Shown: in pieces, positions 2,856 to 59,623 of the stretch
Numbering within the stretch: position 1 is the first letter of the stretch
Layout of the letters: every line of letters begins with the position of its first letter
From: a virus
Virus record (IMG/VR): IMGVR_UViG_3300032782_000007
Span: 9,240-73,239 of that record
DNA length: 64,000 nt
Reading direction: 5' to 3' (one strand)
The notes under the pieces: generated by a model
What the model saw: the letters and a program-made list of their open reading frames with translations, nothing else
What the model was told of the DNA's origin: nothing
Databases searched by the model: none
Translations under genes and position numbers: made by a program

Positions 2856-4457
2856 ATGACCACCACTGAAACGACCGTAAAGACCGCGAAAGCCCCGAAG
2901 CAGCCCAAACAGCTGCTGGTGGACTCATGCTGGGTCCAGCTCCAGTTGGTGGAGGGGCAGCACGAGGGGAAGACCATCGTGCGCGGCGAGTTCGCCAAGT
3001 GCGGGATTGCAACGGAGAACAAGCGCGTTTATCCGGGGAAGCTCTGGGAGCGGGAGTTCAATCGTCTGCGAAAGACGATGAGCGCGGGCTCCTTGTTTGG
3101 AGAGAGCGATCACCCGAGCGATGGTCGGACGCAGCTTTCGCGTGTCTCGCACAAGATCACCAATCTTGAAATCAAAGATGGCGTGGTTGTCGGCGAGGCC
3201 GAGATCATGGATACCGCACGCGGTCGAGATCTCAAAGCGATTTTGGCGAGTGGGGGGAAAATCGGAATCAGCTCTCGCGGTCTTGGTTCGGTTCGTACGA
3301 ACGAGCGCGGCGAGGACATCGTTCAGGACGACTACCGGCTTGTGACGTTCGACTTCGTTGCAGATCCGGCCGACCAGGACGCGTTTCCGGGAGTTTTCTA
3401 CGAGCATCGAGAGGAACGGATGGAGCAGGACCAAGAGGCGAAGCAGGCGCAGGAATTCGCGGCGGCCGTTGAGCAGGCCAGGAAAGAGAGCCGCGAGGGA
3501 GCCGAGGCGGCGCTTCGTGAGGAGTTCGCCAAAGAGATGGTCACGCGCCTCTCGGCGTTTCGAGCGGAGATCGCGGAACAGATCCGGGGCGAGCTGCTTT
3601 CGGATCCCTCGGTAGCGGGGGCGAAGGTCGCCCTCGAGCGAGTCAAGGACGCTCTTCGACCGTTCGTGCTTCCTGAGGACGCGAAAATCGTTGGCGAGCA
3701 GAAGGACAGCGAGATCGGTCAGCTGAAGAAGATGCTCGCGGAGCAGTCGCTGAGGCTGAAGACACTCGAGGAGGAGAAGTCCAACCTCGAGAAGGTGGCC
3801 AAAGAGGCCGGCTACAAGTTCTACCTCGAGCGCCAAATCGGTTCGGATCCGGATGCGGAGCTTATCCGCAAGCTCCTCGGTGACGTAACGGTTTTCAAGA
3901 CTGGCGCGGAGCTGCAGGAGAAGATCGAAGCGGTCCGTACGGACCTGCAAACCAAGCGGGCAGAGGCGGCGAAGCTGACCGAGGAGATCGAGGCGGAGAA
4001 GCGTGCCGAGCGGGATCGCAAGGAGAAGGAGCGTGTCCGCGCGCTCAAGCACGAGGAGTCACTCCGCGAGGAAGTGGCCCAGCTCCGCGAGGCTCTTGCG
4101 AAGTCGTACCGCGTGAACCAGGAGTTCGAAGTTCTCTACTACGCGGAAGAGCGTCTTCGCAATCATCCGCGTGCCGCCGAGATCCGGCCGCTCGTGGAGA
4201 ACTCGACTCTCGAGTCGAAAGAGCAGATCGACAAGATTCTGGACGGATTCCGTGCAGCACCGCTGCAGTCGGAGGAAGTCGCGAATGTCAGGGCGCGCGT
4301 GCGCCAGCTTACCCAGGGGGGTCATGGACCGGACGCAATCGAGGAGGCAAAGCCTGCTCGGCCGCGGTCGGAAAATGGAGGATTTTTCGAGCGTTTGGGA
4401 ACAACCAGGGAAGAGCAGCGCGGCCTGATGGGCTTCGCTCCCACCCGAACGAAGTGA
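2856..4457 (+). CDS. Prohead protease (T4 gp21-like) fused to coiled-coil scaffold
   Basis: Motifs NKRVYP, GESDHP, VSHKIT, GISSRGLGS, TFDFVADP, then ~340 aa of Glu/Lys-rich coiled coil. Confidence 0.92.
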   Translation: MTTTETTVKTAKAPKQPKQLLVDSCWVQLQLVEGQHEGKTIVRGEFAKCGIATENKRVYPGKLWEREFNRLRKTMSAGSLFGESDHPSDGRTQLSRVSHKITNLEIKDGVVVGEAEIMDTARGRDLKAILASGGKIGISSRGLGSVRTNERGEDIVQDDYRLVTFDFVADPADQDAFPGVFYEHREERMEQDQEAKQAQEFAAAVEQARKESREGAEAALREEFAKEMVTRLSAFRAEIAEQIRGELLSDPSVAGAKVALERVKDALRPFVLPEDAKIVGEQKDSEIGQLKKMLAEQSLRLKTLEEEKSNLEKVAKEAGYKFYLERQIGSDPDAELIRKLLGDVTVFKTGAELQEKIEAVRTDLQTKRAEAAKLTEEIEAEKRAERDRKEKERVRALKHEESLREEVAQLREALAKSYRVNQEFEVLYYAEERLRNHPRAAEIRPLVENSTLESKEQIDKILDGFRAAPLQSEEVANVRARVRQLTQGGHGPDAIEEAKPARPRSENGGFFERLGTTREEQRGLMGFAPTRTK

Positions 4458-4499: not shown

Positions 4500-6008
4500 A
4501 TGTCTACAGAAGCACGTGAAATATTGGCAGAGCAGCAGGCGCGGACGATCGCCGACAAGAGCTACGTCCGAAGCCTTGTTCAGAAGTGGGGCGAGTTTCT
4601 CGAGGGGATTCCGGACAAGACGGAACAGCAGCGCTACACGCTCGGCGTGGCGGCGATCCTCATGGAGAACCAGTGCCAGCACCTCTTGACGATGAACGAG
4701 GACACGCGAACGGCCAACGTTGGTTCGTTCACGAAGTTCATCTTCCCGATCCTGCGCCGGGTCTTCCCGAACCTGATCGCGAACGAGATCGTCTCGGTAC
4801 AGCCGATGACGGCTCCGACGGCGGCGGTCTTCTACCTCGACTACGTCTACGGCACGACCAAGGGCCAGACGCAGGCGGGAAACGTCTTCCCGCGTGACTT
4901 CGACCGCAACTACTCCTCGGAGTACGTGCAGGGCGAAATCCTTTGGACGGGTGACGGTACCCACGGTGGTGGTGCGGGCACGGCGATCTCGCTGAGCCTC
5001 GCGTTCAACCCAGTTCGTCCGCTCAACACGACGCTCGGCTTCTCCTGCGTGGTTCAGGAAGAGGACTCGACGGGCACGGCGGTCCAGGTGGCGACCGACA
5101 ACGGAACGGGTGGATTCACCTTCGTTCCGGCTGGCGGATCCACCGCGGGCACGATCAACTACTCGAACGGCGCGATCTCTGGATTCAAGTTCCAGAACGC
5201 TCCGGCGAGCGGAAACAAGGTCCGAGCCTACTACTACTACGACGGGGAGCTGAACCAGAAGGTTCCGCAGATCAACCTCGACGTCAAGCAGGCGCCGGTT
5301 CAGGCCCAGCCGCGTCGACTGAAGGCGCTCTGGTCGGCAGAGGCCGCTGAGGACCTCCGCGCGTTCCACGGGATCGACGCTGAGACCGAAATGGTTTCGG
5401 CTGTCGCCCAGGACATCGCGCTCGAGATCGACCGTGAGATCGTCAACGATCTCTTCGCGGCCTCGACGGGAACGACCGCGTCGTTCGACCGTGTACCCCC
5501 GGCGGGTATCGCGGAGATCGACCACCTCCGCGCGATGATCACGCAGATCTCGACGGTGTCGAACCTCATCCACAAGAAAACGCTGCGTGCGCCCGCGAAC
5601 TTCATCGTCACGTCCCCGGACGTGTCGGCGCTGATCGCGCAGCTCACCACGCACGGTGACTACCGTCCGCTCTGGGTCAGCGGCGGCGAATCCCCGTACG
5701 GCCCGGCAGACATGCCGCGTCCGCTCACCCAGCACGGGCAGTTCGGTATCTACAAGACCGGAACGCTCATGAACAAGTGGATGGTCTACGAAGACCCGTT
5801 CTTCACGCGCGATCAGATGCTGATCGGGCTCAAGGGCGGAAGCTTCCTCGACGCCGGATACGTCTGGGCGCCGTACATCCCGCTTCAGGTGACTCCGACC
5901 TTCCTCGATCCGGCAGACTTTTCCTTCAGGAAGGGCCTCCGCACGCGTTACGCTAAGAAGTTGCTTCGAAGCGAATTCTACGGCCAAATGCGAATTCTTA
6001 ATCTTTGA
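4500..6008 (+). CDS. Major capsid protein, T4 gp23-like, with inserted beta domain
   Basis: RRVFPNLIANEIVSVQPM, RRLKALWS.EA.EDL.AFHGIDAE.E, WAPYIPL...GLRTRY motifs. Confidence 0.96.
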   Translation: MSTEAREILAEQQARTIADKSYVRSLVQKWGEFLEGIPDKTEQQRYTLGVAAILMENQCQHLLTMNEDTRTANVGSFTKFIFPILRRVFPNLIANEIVSVQPMTAPTAAVFYLDYVYGTTKGQTQAGNVFPRDFDRNYSSEYVQGEILWTGDGTHGGGAGTAISLSLAFNPVRPLNTTLGFSCVVQEEDSTGTAVQVATDNGTGGFTFVPAGGSTAGTINYSNGAISGFKFQNAPASGNKVRAYYYYDGELNQKVPQINLDVKQAPVQAQPRRLKALWSAEAAEDLRAFHGIDAETEMVSAVAQDIALEIDREIVNDLFAASTGTTASFDRVPPAGIAEIDHLRAMITQISTVSNLIHKKTLRAPANFIVTSPDVSALIAQLTTHGDYRPLWVSGGESPYGPADMPRPLTQHGQFGIYKTGTLMNKWMVYEDPFFTRDQMLIGLKGGSFLDAGYVWAPYIPLQVTPTFLDPADFSFRKGLRTRYAKKLLRSEFYGQMRILNL

Positions 6009-6067: not shown

Positions 6068-6125
6068 AAGGGTCCACACAAAATTTGTGTTGAACGTGCA
6101 CGCCTCGGAGCGTATAACTCTCGGC

Positions 6126-7226
6126 ATGGGTCGAGTCGCAGGGAAGAAGCACGAGAAGCCGCGGGTATACTTGGCGCCCGAGCAGAAAACAGCATTGGTC
6201 CGTCGATACAACGAGGCGTTAGCCTCGAACGAGTTCCTCACGCAGGCCCAGCTGGGGGCGGAGTTCGGAATCACGCAGGTAGCGGCAAGCAAGATTCTCC
6301 GTGCGGCGGGGGTGAGGACGCGTTCCCGTGAGGAGGCGTGCCCGACGCGGATAGATCCTCAGGAGGCAGCTAGGATCTACCTGGAGAACCCTCGAATGAC
6401 GATCGAAGAGGTCGGCGAGCTGTACGACGTCGGTTACACGGCGACTCGAGACCAGCTGCTCAAAGCGGGAGTACCGTTGAGGACGTCAACGGACTACGCG
6501 CGATACGCGTGCAACAGGAATTTCTTTGCTGAGGTGAACCCTACGACCGCGTACTTTGCGGGGTTCATCGCCGCTGACGGATACATCACCAAATCGGGTT
6601 TGTCCGTGAATTTCGGGCTCCATCCGAAAGACGCGGTGATTCTGACGAATCTCAAGGCAGCCTGTGGATCGGAGCATCCAATAGTGGTCAGGCCTAACAA
6701 CACAGGGAGGTTATACAGCTGGCTCTCGGTGTGCAGCATCGACTGGGTGCGGGACCTCGAGCGTCACTACAATATCGTCAACGCGAAGTCGTTGATCCTT
6801 AGGCCTCCGAATCTGACCGATGAGGGCCTGATCTGGCACTTCATCCGCGGCTACTTCGACGGCGATGGACATGCAAGTCTTGCCGGTCTGGTACATATCA
6901 TCACAGGTTCCCAGGCGTTTATGGGCTGGCTGAAAGAGATTCTAGGAGAGCCCGGGCACATCCAGGAACACGAGTGGCTCAACGAGGACAAGGAGACCTA
7001 CATTTGCGGCTACGGCGCCTGGTGGTCTAAACTTGCGGACGCTAAACGGATTGCGCTGAAAATGTACGCCGACTCCACGCCCGCCATCCGGCTGGAGCGT
7101 AAATTTCTGCGTTTGCAACGGCATTTCGGGCCTGGGCCTCAGACGGCGCCCGAAGAGTTCGAGGACGTTCTCGAGCTAGACGACGCGGACGACGCCCCCG
7201 AGTTGGAACGGATTAAAGGCGCTTGA
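6126..7226 (+). CDS. Free-standing LAGLIDADG homing endonuclease with N-terminal HTH repeats
   Basis: AYFAGFIAADG and FIRGYFDGDG motifs; TTGAAC-17-TATAAC promoter 7 nt before ATG 6126. Confidence 0.9.
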   Translation: MGRVAGKKHEKPRVYLAPEQKTALVRRYNEALASNEFLTQAQLGAEFGITQVAASKILRAAGVRTRSREEACPTRIDPQEAARIYLENPRMTIEEVGELYDVGYTATRDQLLKAGVPLRTSTDYARYACNRNFFAEVNPTTAYFAGFIAADGYITKSGLSVNFGLHPKDAVILTNLKAACGSEHPIVVRPNNTGRLYSWLSVCSIDWVRDLERHYNIVNAKSLILRPPNLTDEGLIWHFIRGYFDGDGHASLAGLVHIITGSQAFMGWLKEILGEPGHIQEHEWLNEDKETYICGYGAWWSKLADAKRIALKMYADSTPAIRLERKFLRLQRHFGPGPQTAPEEFEDVLELDDADDAPELERIKGA

Positions 7227-8553: not shown

Positions 8554-8905
8554 CGGTTATCCAGGCGTGGGCCAAACACCGCTGTTTGCTCCGCGACTGC
8601 GTGTAGAGCTGGAACACGTCAAGCACGGTATCCAGACGATGCTCACGGCGCATACGGAAGAACTTCAGCAGATGGCGGAGGAAGCGCTCGCGGAGCTTCT
8701 CGTTCCAGAGAAGATCGCCGAGCGAGTACGTCAGGAGGTTGAGGCCCAGCTTCGGCGGGTCCTGGACGAGACGATTGTCACTGCGATTCGATCGTCCGTC
8801 GGCGATGTCGTATTCGAACGAGTTCGAGAGGCTACGTTGTTGGCGGCGAAAACGGAGGTAGAACGCCTCTCGAAGCGCGCCAAGCGCGGCCGCCAGCGAC
8901 GTTGA
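8546..8905 (+). CDS. Hypothetical helical protein
   Basis: ATG 8546 after AAGGA; coupled to the previous gene. Confidence 0.55.
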   Translation: MNNGYPGVGQTPLFAPRLRVELEHVKHGIQTMLTAHTEELQQMAEEALAELLVPEKIAERVRQEVEAQLRRVLDETIVTAIRSSVGDVVFERVREATLLAAKTEVERLSKRAKRGRQRR

Positions 8906-8930
8906 CAATCCCTTCCATCTCGCGTAGTGT
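8902..8930 (+). promoter_or_regulatory. Sigma70-type promoter, leaderless transcript
   Basis: TTGACA (8902-8907), 17 nt, TAGTGT (8925-8930), ATG 6 nt later. Confidence 0.7.
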
Positions 8931-8936
8931 CGCTGT

Positions 8937-9665
8937 ATGAACCGACGAGATCTGCTCAAGCTAGTTGGGGCGCTTCCTGTGCTCGGAATGTCGCGGACCG
9001 CTGAAGGGGCGCCGGAGGCAGCGAAGGTCCGTACGGACCTCTCGAAAGATACGTTCGTCTTAGCAGACAACGTCGAGCCGATCGCCGCAGATCCGGCGAG
9101 GGCGGCGGACCGCCTGAATGCGAACTTTGACAGGCTCGCAGCTTCGCACCCAGCCTGGTGGTCCCCTGCGGAGGAGGATCTGCAGCTGCAACGACGGATC
9201 TGCAATCGTCTGTGCAGATTGCTGATCGATCTGCGGTGTCAGTTCCTGGACGGGCACGAGGGGGAAGATCCCGCGGCGCCTTTCTACCCTCACCAGAGCC
9301 CCACATTGATTCGCGATCACGTGGTGTTCGCAACAACGGATAGTCCCTTTGCGGTCCTCAACGGCCAGGCCAAGCCTGCGTACGCGCGACGTTTGCGCGT
9401 GGCGTCGATCCCGCAGTTCCGAGGCATGCTCGACGACGTACGGGCGTACCACGGAATCGACGTGGACTATGAAATCGTCAGCGGTGTGGCCTCGCAGACT
9501 GCGCTTGAGGTGTGCGCAGAGATTCGCAAAGACTGGGAGCGCGGTGTGAAGACGCGAGTCTACGCTCTCTACATGGGTCCGTTCGTTCAAGGAGTGGACC
9601 CGGAGGTTGCAAAAGAGTTCTCCGTAGAGCGCCGATCGATGATCCGGTACGCGAAGTTCACATGA
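8937..9665 (+). CDS. Truncated major-capsid paralogue with twin-arginine signal-like N-terminus
   Basis: N-terminus MNRRDLLKLVGALPVLGM..AEGA; ARRLRV..DDVRAYHGIDVDYEIVSGVASQTALEV and IRYAK align with capsid PRRLKA..EDLRAFHGIDAETEMVSAVAQDIALEI and TRYAK. Confidence 0.8.
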   Translation: MNRRDLLKLVGALPVLGMSRTAEGAPEAAKVRTDLSKDTFVLADNVEPIAADPARAADRLNANFDRLAASHPAWWSPAEEDLQLQRRICNRLCRLLIDLRCQFLDGHEGEDPAAPFYPHQSPTLIRDHVVFATTDSPFAVLNGQAKPAYARRLRVASIPQFRGMLDDVRAYHGIDVDYEIVSGVASQTALEVCAEIRKDWERGVKTRVYALYMGPFVQGVDPEVAKEFSVERRSMIRYAKFT

Positions 9666-12600
9666 AGAACAAGCTGACCGGAGAGCTACAGAAGATGCGC
9701 GAGATGACCGATCTCATCGAGGAGGCACGCAAGCGTGGCCCGATGAGCGACGCAGAGCGCCGTGAGCAAGCGGCATCGTTCGCGTTCGGAAATCTCGCGC
9801 TCACCTCCCAGTGGAGGGACGCAACGCACGAGGAGTTGAAAGTACTTCGTGAGCGCTGCCGTCGGGCCGCGGGGTGCGAAGGAACCGCCTGTAAGCTGCC
9901 TCCTGCGGGTTGGCGGTGTTCGCGCGAGCCAGGCCACGAGGGTCCGTGTGCGGCCCGTCCTGGTTCTGCGTCCGAACCAAGCAGCGCGCCCACGCACCCG
10001 CCGTCGGACGGTCCGAACGGGTTTCGTGGTTGTCAGCGCTGCGAATGAGGGGATCCATGACTACGCGTTGTGTCCGTAAAGGCGAAGAAGCCGCGAATAT
10101 GGAGCGGGCCGCGACAGAGGCGCGCAAAGAAGAGCGACGGATGGTGGTGAACTTCCTCTATTCGTTCAATGCGCCTGAACTGGCCGAACGGATTGCGGCG
10201 GGCGAGCATACGGACGAACTAGACCCGAGGTAGATCATGTGGAATCCATTTCGAGTCAACGCGCCTCCTCCGCCCGAGCCGTCTGAGCCGGCGCCCCCGC
10301 CTCCTCCTCCGCCTCCTCCGTTCAATGCAAAGAGCAAGTGTCCGAAGTGCGGTAGCGGAAGCGGTTACACACGCTTCGTTGAAAGCAAAAACTTGATGAA
10401 CAGGGTGTGCATGGATTGCACCGCCCACTGGTGGGAAACGCCGCTCGATCGCGCCACCTAGGAAGAACGCACATGGACGCAAAAACCGGACAAATCTATC
10501 TCAACGTAAGCAAAGAAGAGGCCAAGAAGAGAGGCCTGGTCCCGATTCCCGCCGATCAAGCGGAGAAGGTGATCAACATGAATCGGCGCGAGCGTCGAGC
10601 GTGGGCGGCGCAGCAGCGTCGGGCGAAGAAGTAGGCTCCGATGGGTGCAAGTTTCTTCTCCGAAAGAGGACTGGGCAAGACGGCTGAGATCGCGTTCGAG
10701 CAGCTTGTTGAAGAGGCTCGGTTCGATTTCGGACACGCAGGGTATACAGGCACGATCGCGGAGAAAACCGAGTTCAAGATGATCGAGTGCCCCAAAGGGT
10801 GGGACCCCGAGGACTGGATCGAGGAGGACGAGGCACTGGCGCAGGTCGAGGACAAGTGGGGCCCTGCCGGTTGTATCGATCTCGGCGGCGGGGAATGGCT
10901 TTTCTTTGGGTTCGCGTCCTCGTAAGCTTAGAAGCAGAATGAATGAGGATTGCAAACACGCACGCGTAGCGCCAGAAGTGTGCGATCAGACTCTCGGCGT
11001 GTACTGCCTGGACTGCAACGAGGGGCTTGTCGTGTGCTGGATGAAAGAGCATATTCCCGAGTCGCTGTGGAATCGTGCGTGTACGAACGACGTAGACGCG
11101 GTTCCGTGCGAGCGTGACCGGGACAATTACTGCGCTATCTGCGGGGAAGAGTTCTCCTTATGAGCAGGAAACCCGATCCCCAAAAGGCCCCTGCGTTCGT
11201 CTCATGCTCCTGTTACGAGGAACGAGGAGAGCGCGTTGAGTGCCAGTCCTGCTACGAGGAGCGGCAGCTCGAGGCAGAGTCATACACAGAGGAGCTGGAC
11301 GAAGACCAGCGCACCCCGGAGGTTCGCATAGAGAAGGTGCTCGCCTGGGCAGGCTTTCGCAGCACCGAAACGAACCACGAAGCGATACAGAAGGTGGCGC
11401 GGGCGATCCATGACGACGCCTACCGGGCGGGCCAGCACTCGCGCCGGCGCCGAGCGACGAACCGAAGCTCTCCGTACCAACCGAAAAAGCTGCCACGGAT
11501 CTAAAGGTCCGGAGAACCCGCCGCGCGATGCATCCCTATCGAGAGCTTCCGCCGACCCACCTCTACCTGGTGAGTTACAAACGAAGTCTTTCGTTTGCAG
11601 CTCCGTACAACGTGATGCGATGCGAGAGACTTGTCTGGGCTCGAGACGACCCTGATGCTCTAACGCAAGTCATCGCAGATGGCGCGGAAGACGTCAGCTG
11701 CGTGACTGTCAGGAAAATGCGATGAAGTATGACGTACCGCGAGACAAAAATGGGGTCAAGCTTGAGGTGGGGGATCGCGTTGAGGACGTGAACGACGCGT
11801 GGCCGCACCGGACCAGATACGGAACGATCCTTCTCGTCTACGAGGACTGCGCCGGAGTAATCGACTGTCGGGTTCTTTGGGACGAGGCCGCTGAGTACAC
11901 GCCGATTCACGGAAGTGCTGTTAGGAGACTGCCTCCGCCAAATCGCTTGATTCGGACGCTCGCGCGGATCGGACTTGTGACGGTCCGGAGTAACCGGACG
12001 GTACGTTGGCCCTTTTACGTAGCCCCGCGCTGGATGTGGGGTCCTTTGTGGCGTCTAGAACCGGTGTTCGGACTCTTCCGTAACAGGCCGGACGTCATGA
12101 AATGGATTCCTGGGCGTCTTCTCCCGCTCCGATGGGGATTCCGGTGCTGGATCTTCGAGGTGGGGGATCGAGGGTCGGCTCAGTGGTCGCGTCGGGATCA
12201 ACGGCTCGTGATCTGATAAAATGTTACCGATGAACGACGACTACGAGGATCCACAGGCCTGTAGTGATCCCTCGATGATCCTGACGCCCGAAGAGTGTCT
12301 GGCACTAATCGAGTCGCGCCCAGCAGCATCGCGCGCTCTAGGCCGTTACGAGGGGTTCGCGATGGCCTCGGGGCTTATAGGGATGGCTCTGGCGATCCGG
12401 GAGCTGTACACGTGGGCCGACGATCCGAGCGCGGACGCCCCGTGTCCGGACTGTCACGCGCCCGAGGGTAAGGCCTGTCGCAATTGGTGTACGTTCACAG
12501 GGTGACCCATGCAGGTAGAGATGTCGCTGGCAGAGCTACTGATGAACGCCATTGGTGCGGGCCACGTACACGGCGTGCAGTTCAAGCGCGGGGCCAGCGA

Positions 12601-17854: not shown

Positions 17855-18589
17855 ATGCCCACCTCGCAAAACAGTTTGATGACGGCGGAGCAGATCCAGC
17901 AGTGGGTGCTTCGACGCCTCGGCGGCTCGTTTCTCAAGGTAGAACTATCCCAGGACGAGCTGGACGACGCCATTGAAGGCGCCCGTAGATGGTTCAGCGC
18001 GCGAAAAGGCGTGAAGAGGCAGGCGTACGTGCCGTTTTACTCCGGCCAGACCACGTACACTCTCGACCCTCAAATAGACGTAGTGCTCGACGTGAGCTTC
18101 CCGGTTCCGTCGATGGACATCTCGCTCATCTTCTCTCCGTACATCCTGCAGGACGAGAAGATCCCGTACGACGTCTTCGCGGCGCCGTCCTCGATGGGTC
18201 TCTACTCGACGTACACGCAGACCATGCAGTACATCGACGAGGCCAAGCGGATCCTCAACGCAGAGCCTGATTGGCGGCAGGAGGATCGCACTCTGTACAT
18301 TTTCCCGATCCCCAAGACGAACGGGAACATGCTTCTCGACTACAAGAGCTTCGATTTCACGATCGAGCAGCTAAGCGAACGCGATCACGACCTTGTAAAG
18401 CGCTACGCGCTAGCATGGGCCAAACGGGACGTGGGTCGTATCCGCAGCAGGTACGCGAGTTATCCCGGCGCACAGGGCCAGACCGAATTGGACGGGGATA
18501 AGCTCCTCGAAGAGGCAAAAGAGGAGATGGAGCTGCTCGACAAGGAGATCGCGTGGAGCGCGATGCCGAGCGGGTTCCTCACGGGCTAA
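17855..18589 (+). CDS. Neck / head-tail adaptor (T4 gp13-like)
   Basis: LRRLGG..LKVELS.DELDDAI, VKRYALAWAK...GRIRS, LDGD.LLEEA motifs. Confidence 0.85.
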   Translation: MPTSQNSLMTAEQIQQWVLRRLGGSFLKVELSQDELDDAIEGARRWFSARKGVKRQAYVPFYSGQTTYTLDPQIDVVLDVSFPVPSMDISLIFSPYILQDEKIPYDVFAAPSSMGLYSTYTQTMQYIDEAKRILNAEPDWRQEDRTLYIFPIPKTNGNMLLDYKSFDFTIEQLSERDHDLVKRYALAWAKRDVGRIRSRYASYPGAQGQTELDGDKLLEEAKEEMELLDKEIAWSAMPSGFLTG

Positions 18590-22234: not shown

Positions 22235-24784
22235 ATGCCCGAACTGCAGTCCGCTGGAGTCTTCATCGAGGAGACTGCGAGCACCACGCAAGTGGTCGGT
22301 CCGGTTTCGACGTCGACGATGGGAACGGTCTTCTGGACCCCCCAAGGTCCGAGCAACGTTGCGACGCTGGTTACGAGTTTCAACCAGTTCGTGCAGACTT
22401 TCGGGACGTTCGATCGTCGCAGCTTCGGCGCCTACTCGATGGCCGCGTTTTTCGCGAACGGTGGAAACCGTGCGTACGTCGTTAGGGTGACTCCGTCGGA
22501 CGCTACCAAGGCCGGCGCGCAAGTTCGCAGCCTGACCACGGACCAGCAGATCGAGGTTGGCGACGGCGCCACGACCGCCTTCACGAAGACCGCTTCGACA
22601 TCGGTGCTCAAGGACAACAGCGGAGCGTCGCCGCTGGTTGCCGGCTCGTTCACGATGCGGTGGCGAGGAAAGGCGGCCGTTCAGACGGGCGTCGCGACGA
22701 AGAAACGCGACGGATCGACCACCCTGAACACCTCGACAGGCGTCCTCAAATACGAGGGTGTCCTCACGCTCGGTCTGCCAGCGGTGGATCCGCACTTGTT
22801 CGCGGTGGTTCCTGATGGGACCGCAGTCATCGGCTGGACTTCCAGCTCGGCAAGCAAGACGATCACGATCGCGGCTCCGGTTTCCGGAACTGTCGGTGTG
22901 GGTACGAACGGCGCAGGTTCAGCGGCCACGTTGGACTACCGTACGGGTCGTTTCTCGCTGCTCATCGCGGTGAGCGAGACTCCGGATAACGCGGTCGGAG
23001 TGACGGGTACGTACTACCCGGCTACGGCAACGTACTCGGTGACGGACGACGGGGCAGGAAATCTCCCGGCCGGATCGGTCCTCTCGGGTGCCGGCACCAT
23101 CAGCTACACGACGGGCGCGTACAGCTTTACGACGCTCTCGACCACGCATATCCCGCACATTCACGGTCCGATCTTGGCGGTCTATCAGATCGAGGACTGG
23201 ATCGTATCCCCGATCTCAGCTGGTGTTTGGGGCAACGCCCTCAAGCTGCAGATCACGGGCAGCCAGAACTACTACACGGCGGCGACGCAGTCGTACTCTC
23301 GCTACAACGTCTCGGTCCTTCAAACGGATTCGAACGGCGTCGATCAGACGATGGAGACGTACGAAGATCTCGTCTTCGACGATCCAACGGATGCAGCGTC
23401 GGCGGCAGAGACGATCAACGAGTTCTCGAGTCTCGTGTCGATCGCTACACCGAACGGTGACGAGGCGGTAGGCCAGCTCAACGGCATTCCGTTCACGCTG
23501 GTCCTCTGCGGGGGAGACGACTCGGATACCGGACGCCTCATTCAGCAAACGCTTCCGACGGCCGGACTACCGGTGGGCAAACGCTCGGTCGTCATCACGT
23601 ATACCGACTCAGCCTCGGTTGCGCGAACGATCAAGGACGACGGGAAGGGAAACCTTACCGGGGACATCGACACCTCGTACACCGGCGGCACGGCAAATAC
23701 GGTCAACTACACGACCGGTGCGCTCGACTTCAAGACAATCGCAGTAGCGGGTCCGGCAGGCATCAAGGCGGACACGCTGGTGTCGGTCAGCTGGTACAGC
23801 GCCCCCGCGGAGACCACGCACACTGAGGACTTCGCGGATACCACGAAGAGCTACGCAGTCGGCTCGGACGGAACGTTCGACACCAACCATTTCAGCAGCC
23901 TGCAGTTCACGGATATCTCGTTGGCCCCGGACTACCAGGGTCTGTACGCACTCGATCGCATCGACGAGCTGATGCAGGTAACGGTTCCGGACTTTGCCGG
24001 GGACGTGACCGTGACGGGCGAGCTGCTCGATTACGCAGCAACGCACGCGTCCTCTTCGTCGGGCGGCGATCGCTTCATCATCCTTTCGGTTCCGAAGGGT
24101 TCTTCGGCGACAGACGCCGTGGACTGGTTCCGCAACAAGCTGCTCCGATTCTCGGACTACGCGGCCCTTTACTGGCCGTGGGTCAACGTGGCGGACCCGC
24201 TCGCAAATGGGCGCAAGCTCACGATGCCGGTCGTTGGTCACGTCGCGGGAATCTACGCACGCACTGACAATCGTCGCAACGTAGGCAAGTCGCCTGGCGG
24301 TACGGTCGACGGCGCGCTGAACTTCATTCAGTCGCTGGAGATTGTTCCGACGAAGGGCGAGCGCGACACGGTTTACCCGAACCGAATCAACCCGCTCATC
24401 AGCTCGGCCCAAACGGGTTTGGCGGTCTGGGGAGTTCGAACGATCTCGCAGACTTCGACGTGGAAGTACATCAACGCGCGTCGACTCTTCATGTTCCTCG
24501 AGAAGTCCATCTACAACAGCACGTTCTGGGTGGTGTTCGAGAACAACGGGCCGGCGCTCTGGTCGCGAATCAAGGGGCAGCTCGACGGATTCCTCCTCGG
24601 GTTGTTCAACGACGGCTACTTTGCCGGAGCGACGCCAAATCAGGCGTTTTTCACGATCTGCGACAACACCAACAACACGCCTTCTTCGATCAATCAGGGT
24701 GTTGTGAACACGACTGTCGGCGCCGCGCCGAACGTTCCGGCGGAATTCGCAGTCTTCGGATTCCAGCAGGTCACCAATAGCTAG
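22235..24784 (+). CDS. Contractile tail sheath protein with large insertion domains
   Basis: SAGVFIEE, FFANGGNRAYVVRV, AALYWPWV, GHVAGIYARTD, INP, VWGVRT, YINARRLF, VFENN, PAEF. Confidence 0.96.
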   Translation: MPELQSAGVFIEETASTTQVVGPVSTSTMGTVFWTPQGPSNVATLVTSFNQFVQTFGTFDRRSFGAYSMAAFFANGGNRAYVVRVTPSDATKAGAQVRSLTTDQQIEVGDGATTAFTKTASTSVLKDNSGASPLVAGSFTMRWRGKAAVQTGVATKKRDGSTTLNTSTGVLKYEGVLTLGLPAVDPHLFAVVPDGTAVIGWTSSSASKTITIAAPVSGTVGVGTNGAGSAATLDYRTGRFSLLIAVSETPDNAVGVTGTYYPATATYSVTDDGAGNLPAGSVLSGAGTISYTTGAYSFTTLSTTHIPHIHGPILAVYQIEDWIVSPISAGVWGNALKLQITGSQNYYTAATQSYSRYNVSVLQTDSNGVDQTMETYEDLVFDDPTDAASAAETINEFSSLVSIATPNGDEAVGQLNGIPFTLVLCGGDDSDTGRLIQQTLPTAGLPVGKRSVVITYTDSASVARTIKDDGKGNLTGDIDTSYTGGTANTVNYTTGALDFKTIAVAGPAGIKADTLVSVSWYSAPAETTHTEDFADTTKSYAVGSDGTFDTNHFSSLQFTDISLAPDYQGLYALDRIDELMQVTVPDFAGDVTVTGELLDYAATHASSSSGGDRFIILSVPKGSSATDAVDWFRNKLLRFSDYAALYWPWVNVADPLANGRKLTMPVVGHVAGIYARTDNRRNVGKSPGGTVDGALNFIQSLEIVPTKGERDTVYPNRINPLISSAQTGLAVWGVRTISQTSTWKYINARRLFMFLEKSIYNSTFWVVFENNGPALWSRIKGQLDGFLLGLFNDGYFAGATPNQAFFTICDNTNNTPSSINQGVVNTTVGAAPNVPAEFAVFGFQQVTNS

Positions 24785-27731: not shown

Positions 27732-27782
27732 CGAGCTTAAAGTAACCCCCAACCGCCCCCTGTCAACGGTTACCCTGATGGG

Positions 27783-59595: not shown

Positions 59596-59623
59596 TTGAC
59601 AGTTTCTGTTTAGTATCTACGGT
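59596..59623 (+). promoter_or_regulatory. Sigma70-type promoter
   Basis: TTGACA-16-TACGGT upstream of the accessory operon. Confidence 0.5.

Follow-up and report, generated by a model that had tools for sequence, protein, structure and literature searches.

Proteins with the HK97 fold are known from the phage heads, herpesvirus capsids and encapsulin shells that they build, and the capsid proteins gp23 and gp24 (PF07068; PDB 6UZC, 8T9R, 5VF3, 1YUE) belong to this group. In this article, a small gene is described that encodes a cut-down derivative of the gp23-type fold preceded by a leader of the twin-arginine translocation (Tat) type. The gene lies at positions 8937-9665 of a 64,000-base window, the whole stretch of DNA that was analysed, which comprises bases 9240-73239 of the 73,239-base uncultured virus record IMGVR_UViG_3300032782_000007 (CheckV completeness 43%), and its source is an uncultured T4-like phage. 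The small protein is homologous to gp23 and gp24 in its spine helix, its E-loop strand and its C-terminal strands, whereas its length is ~240 residues against ~430-520 and the axial (A) domain, the capsid N-terminal region and the insertion domain are absent. Also unlike gp23 and gp24, it bears a Tat-type leader and two new helices, and its relatives' copies do not lie beside head genes. T4 gp24, with a solved chain of 390 residues, is a full-length gp23 paralogue capable of pentamer formation, whereas the small protein has 242 residues and no A-domain. The small gene most likely encodes an accessory protein and not a building block of the shell.

Among described proteins, the A-domain encapsulins come closest to such a free-standing piece of the HK97 fold. 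The A-domain-only encapsulin 2PK8 is assigned to their Family 4 (PF08967/DUF1884) (Andreas and Giessen 2021, PMC8346489), whose members are cellular, mostly archaeal, encoded in enzyme operons and devoid of a signal peptide (PMC8346489). Family 4 and the small protein are alike in being selected, free-standing and heavily truncated derivatives of the HK97 fold, and they are mirror images of each other, since Family 4 keeps the A-domain alone while the small protein keeps the rest and loses the A-domain. The same paper also mentions an encapsulin with a Sec-like signal, for which compartment assembly is proposed (PMC8346489). It resembles the small protein as an HK97-fold protein bearing an export signal and differs in its full shell-forming fold, its Sec-type signal and its cellular origin.

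With bacterial Tat signal peptides (PF10518, TIGR01409), the leaders of the family share an arginine pair, then two hydrophobic residues and K or Q, a moderately hydrophobic h-region, a basic c-region and, in part of the members, AxA, whereas here the leader belongs to a phage gene and is fused to a capsid-derived domain, with no cofactor-binding domain evident. The satellite SaPIbov5 reportedly encodes Ccm (PDB 7RWZ), a diverged homologue of the capsid protein that has the whole coat-like fold, co-assembles into shells and carries no export signal. Like the small protein, Ccm is an additional, divergent relative of a capsid protein whose role is not the standard one; the small protein differs from it in combining a partial fold with an export-type leader.

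Taken singly, the components are of familiar kinds; their combination is undescribed. The original prediction knew of no described example, and a literature search, with most subscription journals outside its coverage, likewise found no description of a capsid fragment bearing a Tat leader. A selected, free-standing half of the HK97 fold on an export leader would mean that capsid parts have been reused for a non-structural job, and it would represent, as far as the searched literature shows, the first clear Tat-routed protein family of phage biology.

The gp23-type core and its predicted fold

The relationship between the small protein and the major capsid protein (MCP) of the same phage was assessed by comparing profiles of the family alignment A2 (26 rows) and the alignment A4 (15 capsid proteins) with hhalign. 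The parts of the two genes are as follows.

8937-9665, plus strand: the small gene, encoding a Tat-type leader followed by a reduced gp23-type capsid fold; 242-residue pre-protein, ATG start, stop codon at 9663-9665
8937-9008, plus strand: residues 1-24, twin-arginine-type leader, with MNRRDLLK, an 11-residue uncharged h-region, the conserved Pro14, R20 in the c-region and a loose A-E-G at -3/-1
9009-9071, plus strand: residues 25-45, a variable linker of low model confidence, differing in length and sequence across alignment A2
9072-9314, plus strand: residues 46-126, the family-specific part, with helices 53-70 and 79-98, a CxxxC pair (C89, C93) and then a FYPxQxP motif
9315-9542, plus strand: residues 127-202, block 1, with beta-hairpin strands and a long kinked spine helix, homologous to MCP residues 256-320
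9543-9557, plus strand: residues 203-207, the junction in place of ~134 capsid residues, placed by the ends of both aligned blocks
9558-9662, plus strand: residues 208-242, block 2, with two C-terminal strands and an RYAKF end, homologous to MCP residues 455-488
4500-6008, plus strand: the phage's own gp23-type MCP, 502 residues, the parent fold (PF07068, E 1.7e-70; phrog_138, E 5.7e-68)
5460-5861, plus strand: MCP residues 321-454, without a counterpart in the small protein and apparently A-domain-like, as placed by the ends of the aligned blocks and judged from an isolated model

The reading frame of the small gene opens just three codons 5' of the ATG, at 8928, so that the start is fixed and alternative starts are impossible.

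The original prediction had stated that the C-terminal ~100 residues match two separate blocks of the phage's own MCP, and both hhalign and the family hidden Markov model (HMM) confirm this. Block 1 is recognizable by BLASTP, with residues 166-199 matching MCP 284-317 at 18 of 34 identical positions (E 4e-8), whereas the pairwise match of block 2 is non-significant (6 of 14 identical, E 2.8) and this block is recovered by profile alone. The two profiles match with a probability of 98.4 and an E of 1.1e-14; within them, residues 127-202 align with MCP 256-320 (probability 98.4, E 8.8e-15), and the last 43 columns, which place residues 208-242 against MCP 455-488, reach a probability of 92.9 and an E of 3.7e-7. 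The family HMM scores 74.7 bits against the MCP, in two collinear domains at 264-318 and 457-487, the second of which contributes 14.9 bits. Between the blocks, residues 321-454 of the MCP (~134 residues) face only residues 203-207 of the small protein (5 residues), close to the earlier estimate of about 140 capsid residues exchanged for about 10.

When the family profile was compared with the PDB, T4 gp23 was matched over its residues 251-318 (E 1.4e-8 to 2.2e-8; best score 37.8 bits). The higher score of the family HMM against the capsid clade of this phage than against T4 gp23 suggests that the small gene was derived from a capsid gene nearer this clade than T4. Toward the N-terminus, residues 38-143 gave no match to the capsid N-terminal part (MCP 1-262; hhalign E 0.24), and residues 46-126 show no sequence match to the MCP. 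The small protein belongs to no library family in Pfam and PHROG searches; in Pfam it has no match at E<=1 or E<=10, and the PF07068 model is not reached, although this Gp23 model matches 12 of the 26 family members, with a best E of 1.5e-12. A family of unknown function, phrog_29607 (168 positions), matches MCP residues 277-315 in the spine-helix region at E 0.011, and its members may likewise be small proteins that carry part of a capsid protein.

The AlphaFold2 model of the small protein, built on A2, has a pLDDT of 86.2 and a pTM of 0.79, and values of pLDDT <50 are confined to residues 17-36. A match to the HK97 fold, sought on the basis of the original prediction, was found with an exhaustive structural aligner, in which T4 gp24 (1yue_A) is the top match (Z 6.7, rmsd 4.4, 129 aligned residues), with model residues 62-242 placed onto 1yue_A 10-383; other HK97-fold shells follow, and each of the first 38 rows is, as judged by entry title, from a phage capsid or an encapsulin. 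These Z values are middling, and they carry weight because they are consistent with the sequence homology. With Foldseek, the whole model has no match at E<=0.001 in the PDB or BFVD, and the PDB search returned a single local match of 58 columns, to the T4 capsid chain 6uzc_C at E 1.5. The top BFVD rows are the uncharacterised phage proteins A0A6G6XX25 (138 residues, E 0.023) and a Synechococcus phage S-CAM7 protein (176 residues, E 0.056), and leader-less relatives of the new N-terminal part may exist in cultured T4-like phages.

The piece of the MCP missing from the small protein was modelled alone as residues 318-456. The resulting model is poor (pLDDT 60.5), and it matches the central parts of capsid proteins, namely residues 303-432 of phicrAss001 (Z 6.5) and residues 313-448 of T4 gp23 (Z 5.1, rmsd 4.3, 97 aligned), as well as the A-domain-only encapsulin 2pk8_A (Z 4.2, rmsd 4.3, 79 of 94 residues aligned). 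It can be said with moderate confidence, given the weak model and the middling Z values, that the missing piece resembles the A-domain of the HK97 fold, in agreement with the proposal of an A-domain-less capsid derivative. The data support the view that the small protein is a gp23-type derivative that has lost the central part and kept the spine helix together with the E-loop and C-terminal strands. It is homologous to gp23 and gp24, yet it is not a working member of that group, as it aligns in the two blocks alone and lacks the A-domain. The inability to form capsomers that the original prediction proposed would follow from the missing domain.

A complex prediction for the MCP and the mature small protein (score 0.00, mark 0.32) speaks neither for nor against an interaction. 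In the ESM Atlas, the nearest clusters, some with Tat-signal families, reach 0.78-0.86, below the lead mark of 0.9, and the Atlas model of the protein is poor. In the second family-specific helix, both cysteines of the CxxxC pair (C89 and C93, window positions 9201-9215) are present in 18 of 26 members, while three members have one and five have none; by its sequence, the pair could be a disulfide or a metal site.

Leader, family and selection

The N-terminus of the small protein consists of MNRRDLLK, LVGALPVLGMS and RTAEGA, as the original prediction had read it (NRRDLLK, a hydrophobic stretch and AEGA). The Tat motif has the consensus S/T-R-R-x-F-L-K, to which N-R-R-D-L-L-K of the small protein is close. 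Conservation of the arginine pair among homologues, the point on which the prediction had been made to depend, was observed in 22 of 28 family members, where it stands at residues 3-4, except in P0006, in which the called start lies 10 codons too far upstream and the pair is at residue 13. In these 22 members, 8-22 uncharged residues with a mean hydropathy of 1.0-2.1 come next, and the first charge past the h-region is K or R in 13. A strict AxA occurs within the expected window in 11 of the 22, compared with a fraction of 0.11 for equal-sized control windows in the mature parts, and Pro14 is conserved in 24 of 26 members. The profile PF10518 (TAT_signal) matches 6 of 26 members (best E 0.0031) and NCBIfam TIGR01409 matches 2 of 26 (best 0.016), in a test that is limited by short models and HMMER filters. 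Among the 6 of 28 members lacking the arginine pair, one is an 88-residue fragment and another, P0008, begins inside the hydrophobic stretch, so that its start may be miscalled.

A crude Tat-leader pattern was also searched for across the DNA. Among 1624 candidate starts in six frames of the window, a single one fits, and it is that of the small gene; no second leader-bearing gene was recovered with this pattern in the 73 kb of the phage. Within 338 kb, comprising the phage and 18 loci, the pattern is found in 6 family genes and 5 short antisense frames and nowhere else. This distribution indicates that the leader is not a by-product of base composition. By its motif, the small protein resembles the substrates of Tat.

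Of 1.84 billion representatives scanned, 28 were assigned to the family at E<=1e-3 and 13 at E<=1e-10, with lengths of 88-266 residues. The family is rare, as 28 representatives at 50% identity compare with 2944 capsid relatives at E<=1e-10 among 8000 candidates scored, and its members are diverged, the best homologue of the small protein being 42% identical against 83-84% for the capsid relatives. In 50,697 deposited phage records searched by tblastn with three queries, no full-length homologue was present among the matches listed: the window protein had no match, whereas P0019 matched 38 records and P0014 matched 1957, and those listed were capsid genes or stretches unannotated or labelled 'hypothetical protein', none of which covers 80% of the query. 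No relative of the small protein was found in a prokaryote genome collection, and viral contigs searched with P0009 and P0014 yielded no further loci. None of 2606 candidates carried the N-terminal 150 residues in a longer or fused form, which is weak evidence. One relative locus, L005, holds two tandem copies (1655-2374 and 2371-2526), the second of which begins with MNRRMVLK and ends at the contig end.

The origin of the small gene might be sought in a decaying or functionless duplicate of the capsid gene, as could be expected from its truncation relative to the parent and its lack of a library family. A ratio of nonsynonymous to synonymous substitution rates (dN/dS) near 1 had been named as the sign of such decay. 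For the pair from loci L004 and L007 (72% identical, 225 codons), on which the estimate rests since 9 of 10 pairs, the others, are at or near saturation (dS at least 1.6 or undefined), dN is 0.199 and dS is 0.788, giving a ratio of 0.25, and the leader region alone gives about the same ratio. Together with the intact frame, the retention of length and motifs in 28 diverged representatives and the confident AlphaFold2 model, this value means that decay is practically excluded. Of the sequence-based findings named as refuting the original prediction, none was observed. Around related capsid genes, the small gene occurs in 0 of 15 viral loci, 13 of which reach at least 5 kb downstream of the capsid gene, and this absence from all 15 marks it as an optional gene. 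The small gene is an old, selected and optional phage gene.

Possible export and competing explanations

The genes surrounding the family members in other loci bear on the time of expression. In L003 and L004, the small gene follows genes for an exonuclease, a DnaB-type helicase, ribonucleotide reductase, thymidylate synthase and thymidylate kinase, to which L003 adds dihydrofolate reductase and a polymerase exonuclease subunit. A DNA methyltransferase gene lies downstream of the small gene in L004 and L007, and in L007 it is followed further on by pyrophosphohydrolase, nucleotidyltransferase, polynucleotide kinase and NUDIX genes. The ATG of the small gene overlaps the upstream stop codon (ATGA) in 4 of 4 relatives compared at the DNA level (L003, L004, L005 and L007), which indicates that it is read within those operons and has no promoter of its own there. 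The placement of the relatives' gene in operons for replication and nucleotide metabolism implies that it is probably expressed before the head proteins.

A pathway can be proposed that would accommodate these features. The small gene would have arisen within this T4-like group from a gp23-type capsid gene, with loss of the axial domain and the capsid N-terminus and gain of two new helices and a twin-arginine leader. Probably produced earlier than the head proteins, the capsid-derived core would fold in the cytoplasm like its parent, and the arginine-pair leader would pass the folded protein to the host Tat translocase, a route that is preferred over Sec because the domain would fold ahead of export. 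Signal peptidase would then cleave after the c-region, and the mature protein of ~215 residues would be located in the periplasm or at the periplasmic side of the inner membrane. That the core folds in the cytoplasm, leaves in folded form through Tat, undergoes cleavage and serves a purpose other than shell building, probably at an early stage of infection, is considered moderately probable from the sequence features described above. As to the role after export, a binding protein in an envelope conflict, for instance one that keeps a second phage from entering or that masks a receptor, is the leading guess, though a rather doubtful one. The three roles named in the original prediction, an exclusion factor, a defence decoy and an inhibitor of competitor capsid assembly, are likewise guesses, among which the data do not discriminate.

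Several observations weigh against export. The leader of the small protein itself is weak for its family, with 11 uncharged residues, no strict AxA and only the loose A-E-G, and the protein has no match to PF10518 or TIGR01409. No periplasmic target is evident for a piece of capsid. Four members, P0015, P0017, P0019 and P0028, are full-length and apparently true leader-less forms, from which it follows that the core may also act in the cytoplasm; in a tree that leaves out P0012 (the 88-residue fragment) and P0026 (192 residues, without the C-terminus), and in which 15 of 29 inner branches are unsupported, these four are scattered and not basal. Finally, in this phage the small gene is located 3 kb downstream of the MCP gene, between the head and tail modules.

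The leader-less members would be at home in the main rival arrangement, in which the protein is a cytoplasmic mimic of the capsid whose core binds either a host defence sensor that recognizes capsids or the capsid or scaffold of a rival phage, while the leader takes the partner to the membrane or through Tat, or merely anchors the mimic. Within gp23-type proteins, no stretch is more conserved than the part retained here, and the fast evolution and sporadic distribution of the family (42% identity for the best homologue compared with 83-84% for capsid relatives), along with the tandem paralogues in L005, would suit such a role; the Tat system is, moreover, able to transport folded complexes. 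The enrichment of AxA, however, speaks for real translocation and cleavage, no partner is known, and PADLOC-DB at E<=0.01 returned 0 families for the small protein, four of its neighbours and three relatives. Overall, a mimic of this kind is possible, though the balance of probability lies clearly on the other side.

There is a further suggestion, according to which a capsid-core bait on a Tat leader, made early, would bind a host factor that recognizes capsids, such as an abortive-infection sensor, and remove or immobilise it by hitchhiking to or through Tat; a modest version of the same idea is an exported entry blocker directed against competing phages. This suggestion is unlikely as it stands. 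If the bait were real, it would be the first HK97-fold protein working outside shell building and a new use of the host export pathway by a phage. More generally, the role of the small protein could lie in immune evasion or the exclusion of other phages, either of which would connect the recognition of capsids with the cell envelope in a way open to experiment.

The location near the MCP gene raises the question of a component of head assembly or of the virion, that is, a minor capsid protein, a gp24-like vertex protein or an assembly helper, with the N-terminus serving as a membrane tether or as a targeting peptide that the prohead protease cuts off. Head assembly in T4 begins at the inner membrane, T4 gp24 is the top structural match, and in this phage the small gene lies 3 kb after the MCP gene, with an endonuclease gene in between. 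On the other side, the domain that forms the capsomer centre has been lost, the gene is absent near the capsid genes of all 15 related loci, the relatives' copies are found amid nucleotide-metabolism genes, and the leader resembles an export signal with AxA sites. A head component is accordingly very improbable, and the exported accessory protein is retained as the preferred explanation.

Neighbourhood and promoter-like sites

Two further features flank the small gene in the window.

8902-8930, plus strand: promoter-like string TTGACA-17-TAGTGT from a pattern search, with TTGACA at 8902-8907 and TAGTGT at 8925-8930
9662-10048, plus strand: downstream open reading frame (ORF) of 128 residues, whose ATG overlaps the stop codon of the small gene (ATGA), of no known family

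The 128-residue ORF has no counterpart beside the relatives' copies of the small gene, and the window shares no gene with L003, L004, L005 and L007 besides the small gene itself.

In this phage alone, the small gene stands behind a gap of 31 bases, which contains TTGACA-17-TAGTGT. The original prediction had regarded this string as the gene's own host promoter. The string is indeed present, but the notion that the gene is driven by a host promoter is weak, given that the -10 box TAGTGT matches TATAAT at 3 of 6 positions and that the relatives show ATGA overlaps; the consensus promoter scan omits the site. From its sequence, a host-type promoter belonging to the small gene is possible, and the spacing implies that transcription, if the site is used, would start near the A of the ATG and yield a leaderless mRNA. 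The pattern TTGACA-N15-19-TANNNT occurs at 3 sites in the window against 0.47 expected, a number reached in 1 of 100 shuffles. The other two sites are at 27739-27766 on the minus strand and 59596-59623 on the plus strand, and sites of this pattern may be early promoters. The late-promoter motif CTTTAGG was dropped as a candidate, as its 7 sites compare with 3.1 expected and 7 of 100 shuffles were as high. Most gene starts in the window, inspected by eye, lack a clear Shine-Dalgarno motif within 30 upstream bases, and the host may rely little on such motifs. A tRNA search found none, and a search for RNA reads listed none either, the single run found being of DNA and probably the source sample.

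The head module of the window comprises the prohead protease (2856-4457, phrog_207), the MCP (4500-6008) and the endonuclease (6087-7226, phrog_4645), after which a run of small ORFs without library families extends up to the head-tail adaptor at 17855-18589; the tail sheath is at 22235-24784. The endonuclease gene directly after the MCP gene matches phrog_4645 at E 2.9e-32, with a weak HNH match, and in T4 a homing endonuclease occupies the same place after the capsid gene. The prohead protease is long, with 533 residues of which phrog_207 covers 33-417, and the remainder may be a fused scaffold-like tail. Downstream of the small gene, an ORF of 74 residues at 10237-10461 encodes a proline run followed by a zinc-ribbon-like CPKC...C..C, and several of the neighbouring small ORFs are rich in cysteine.

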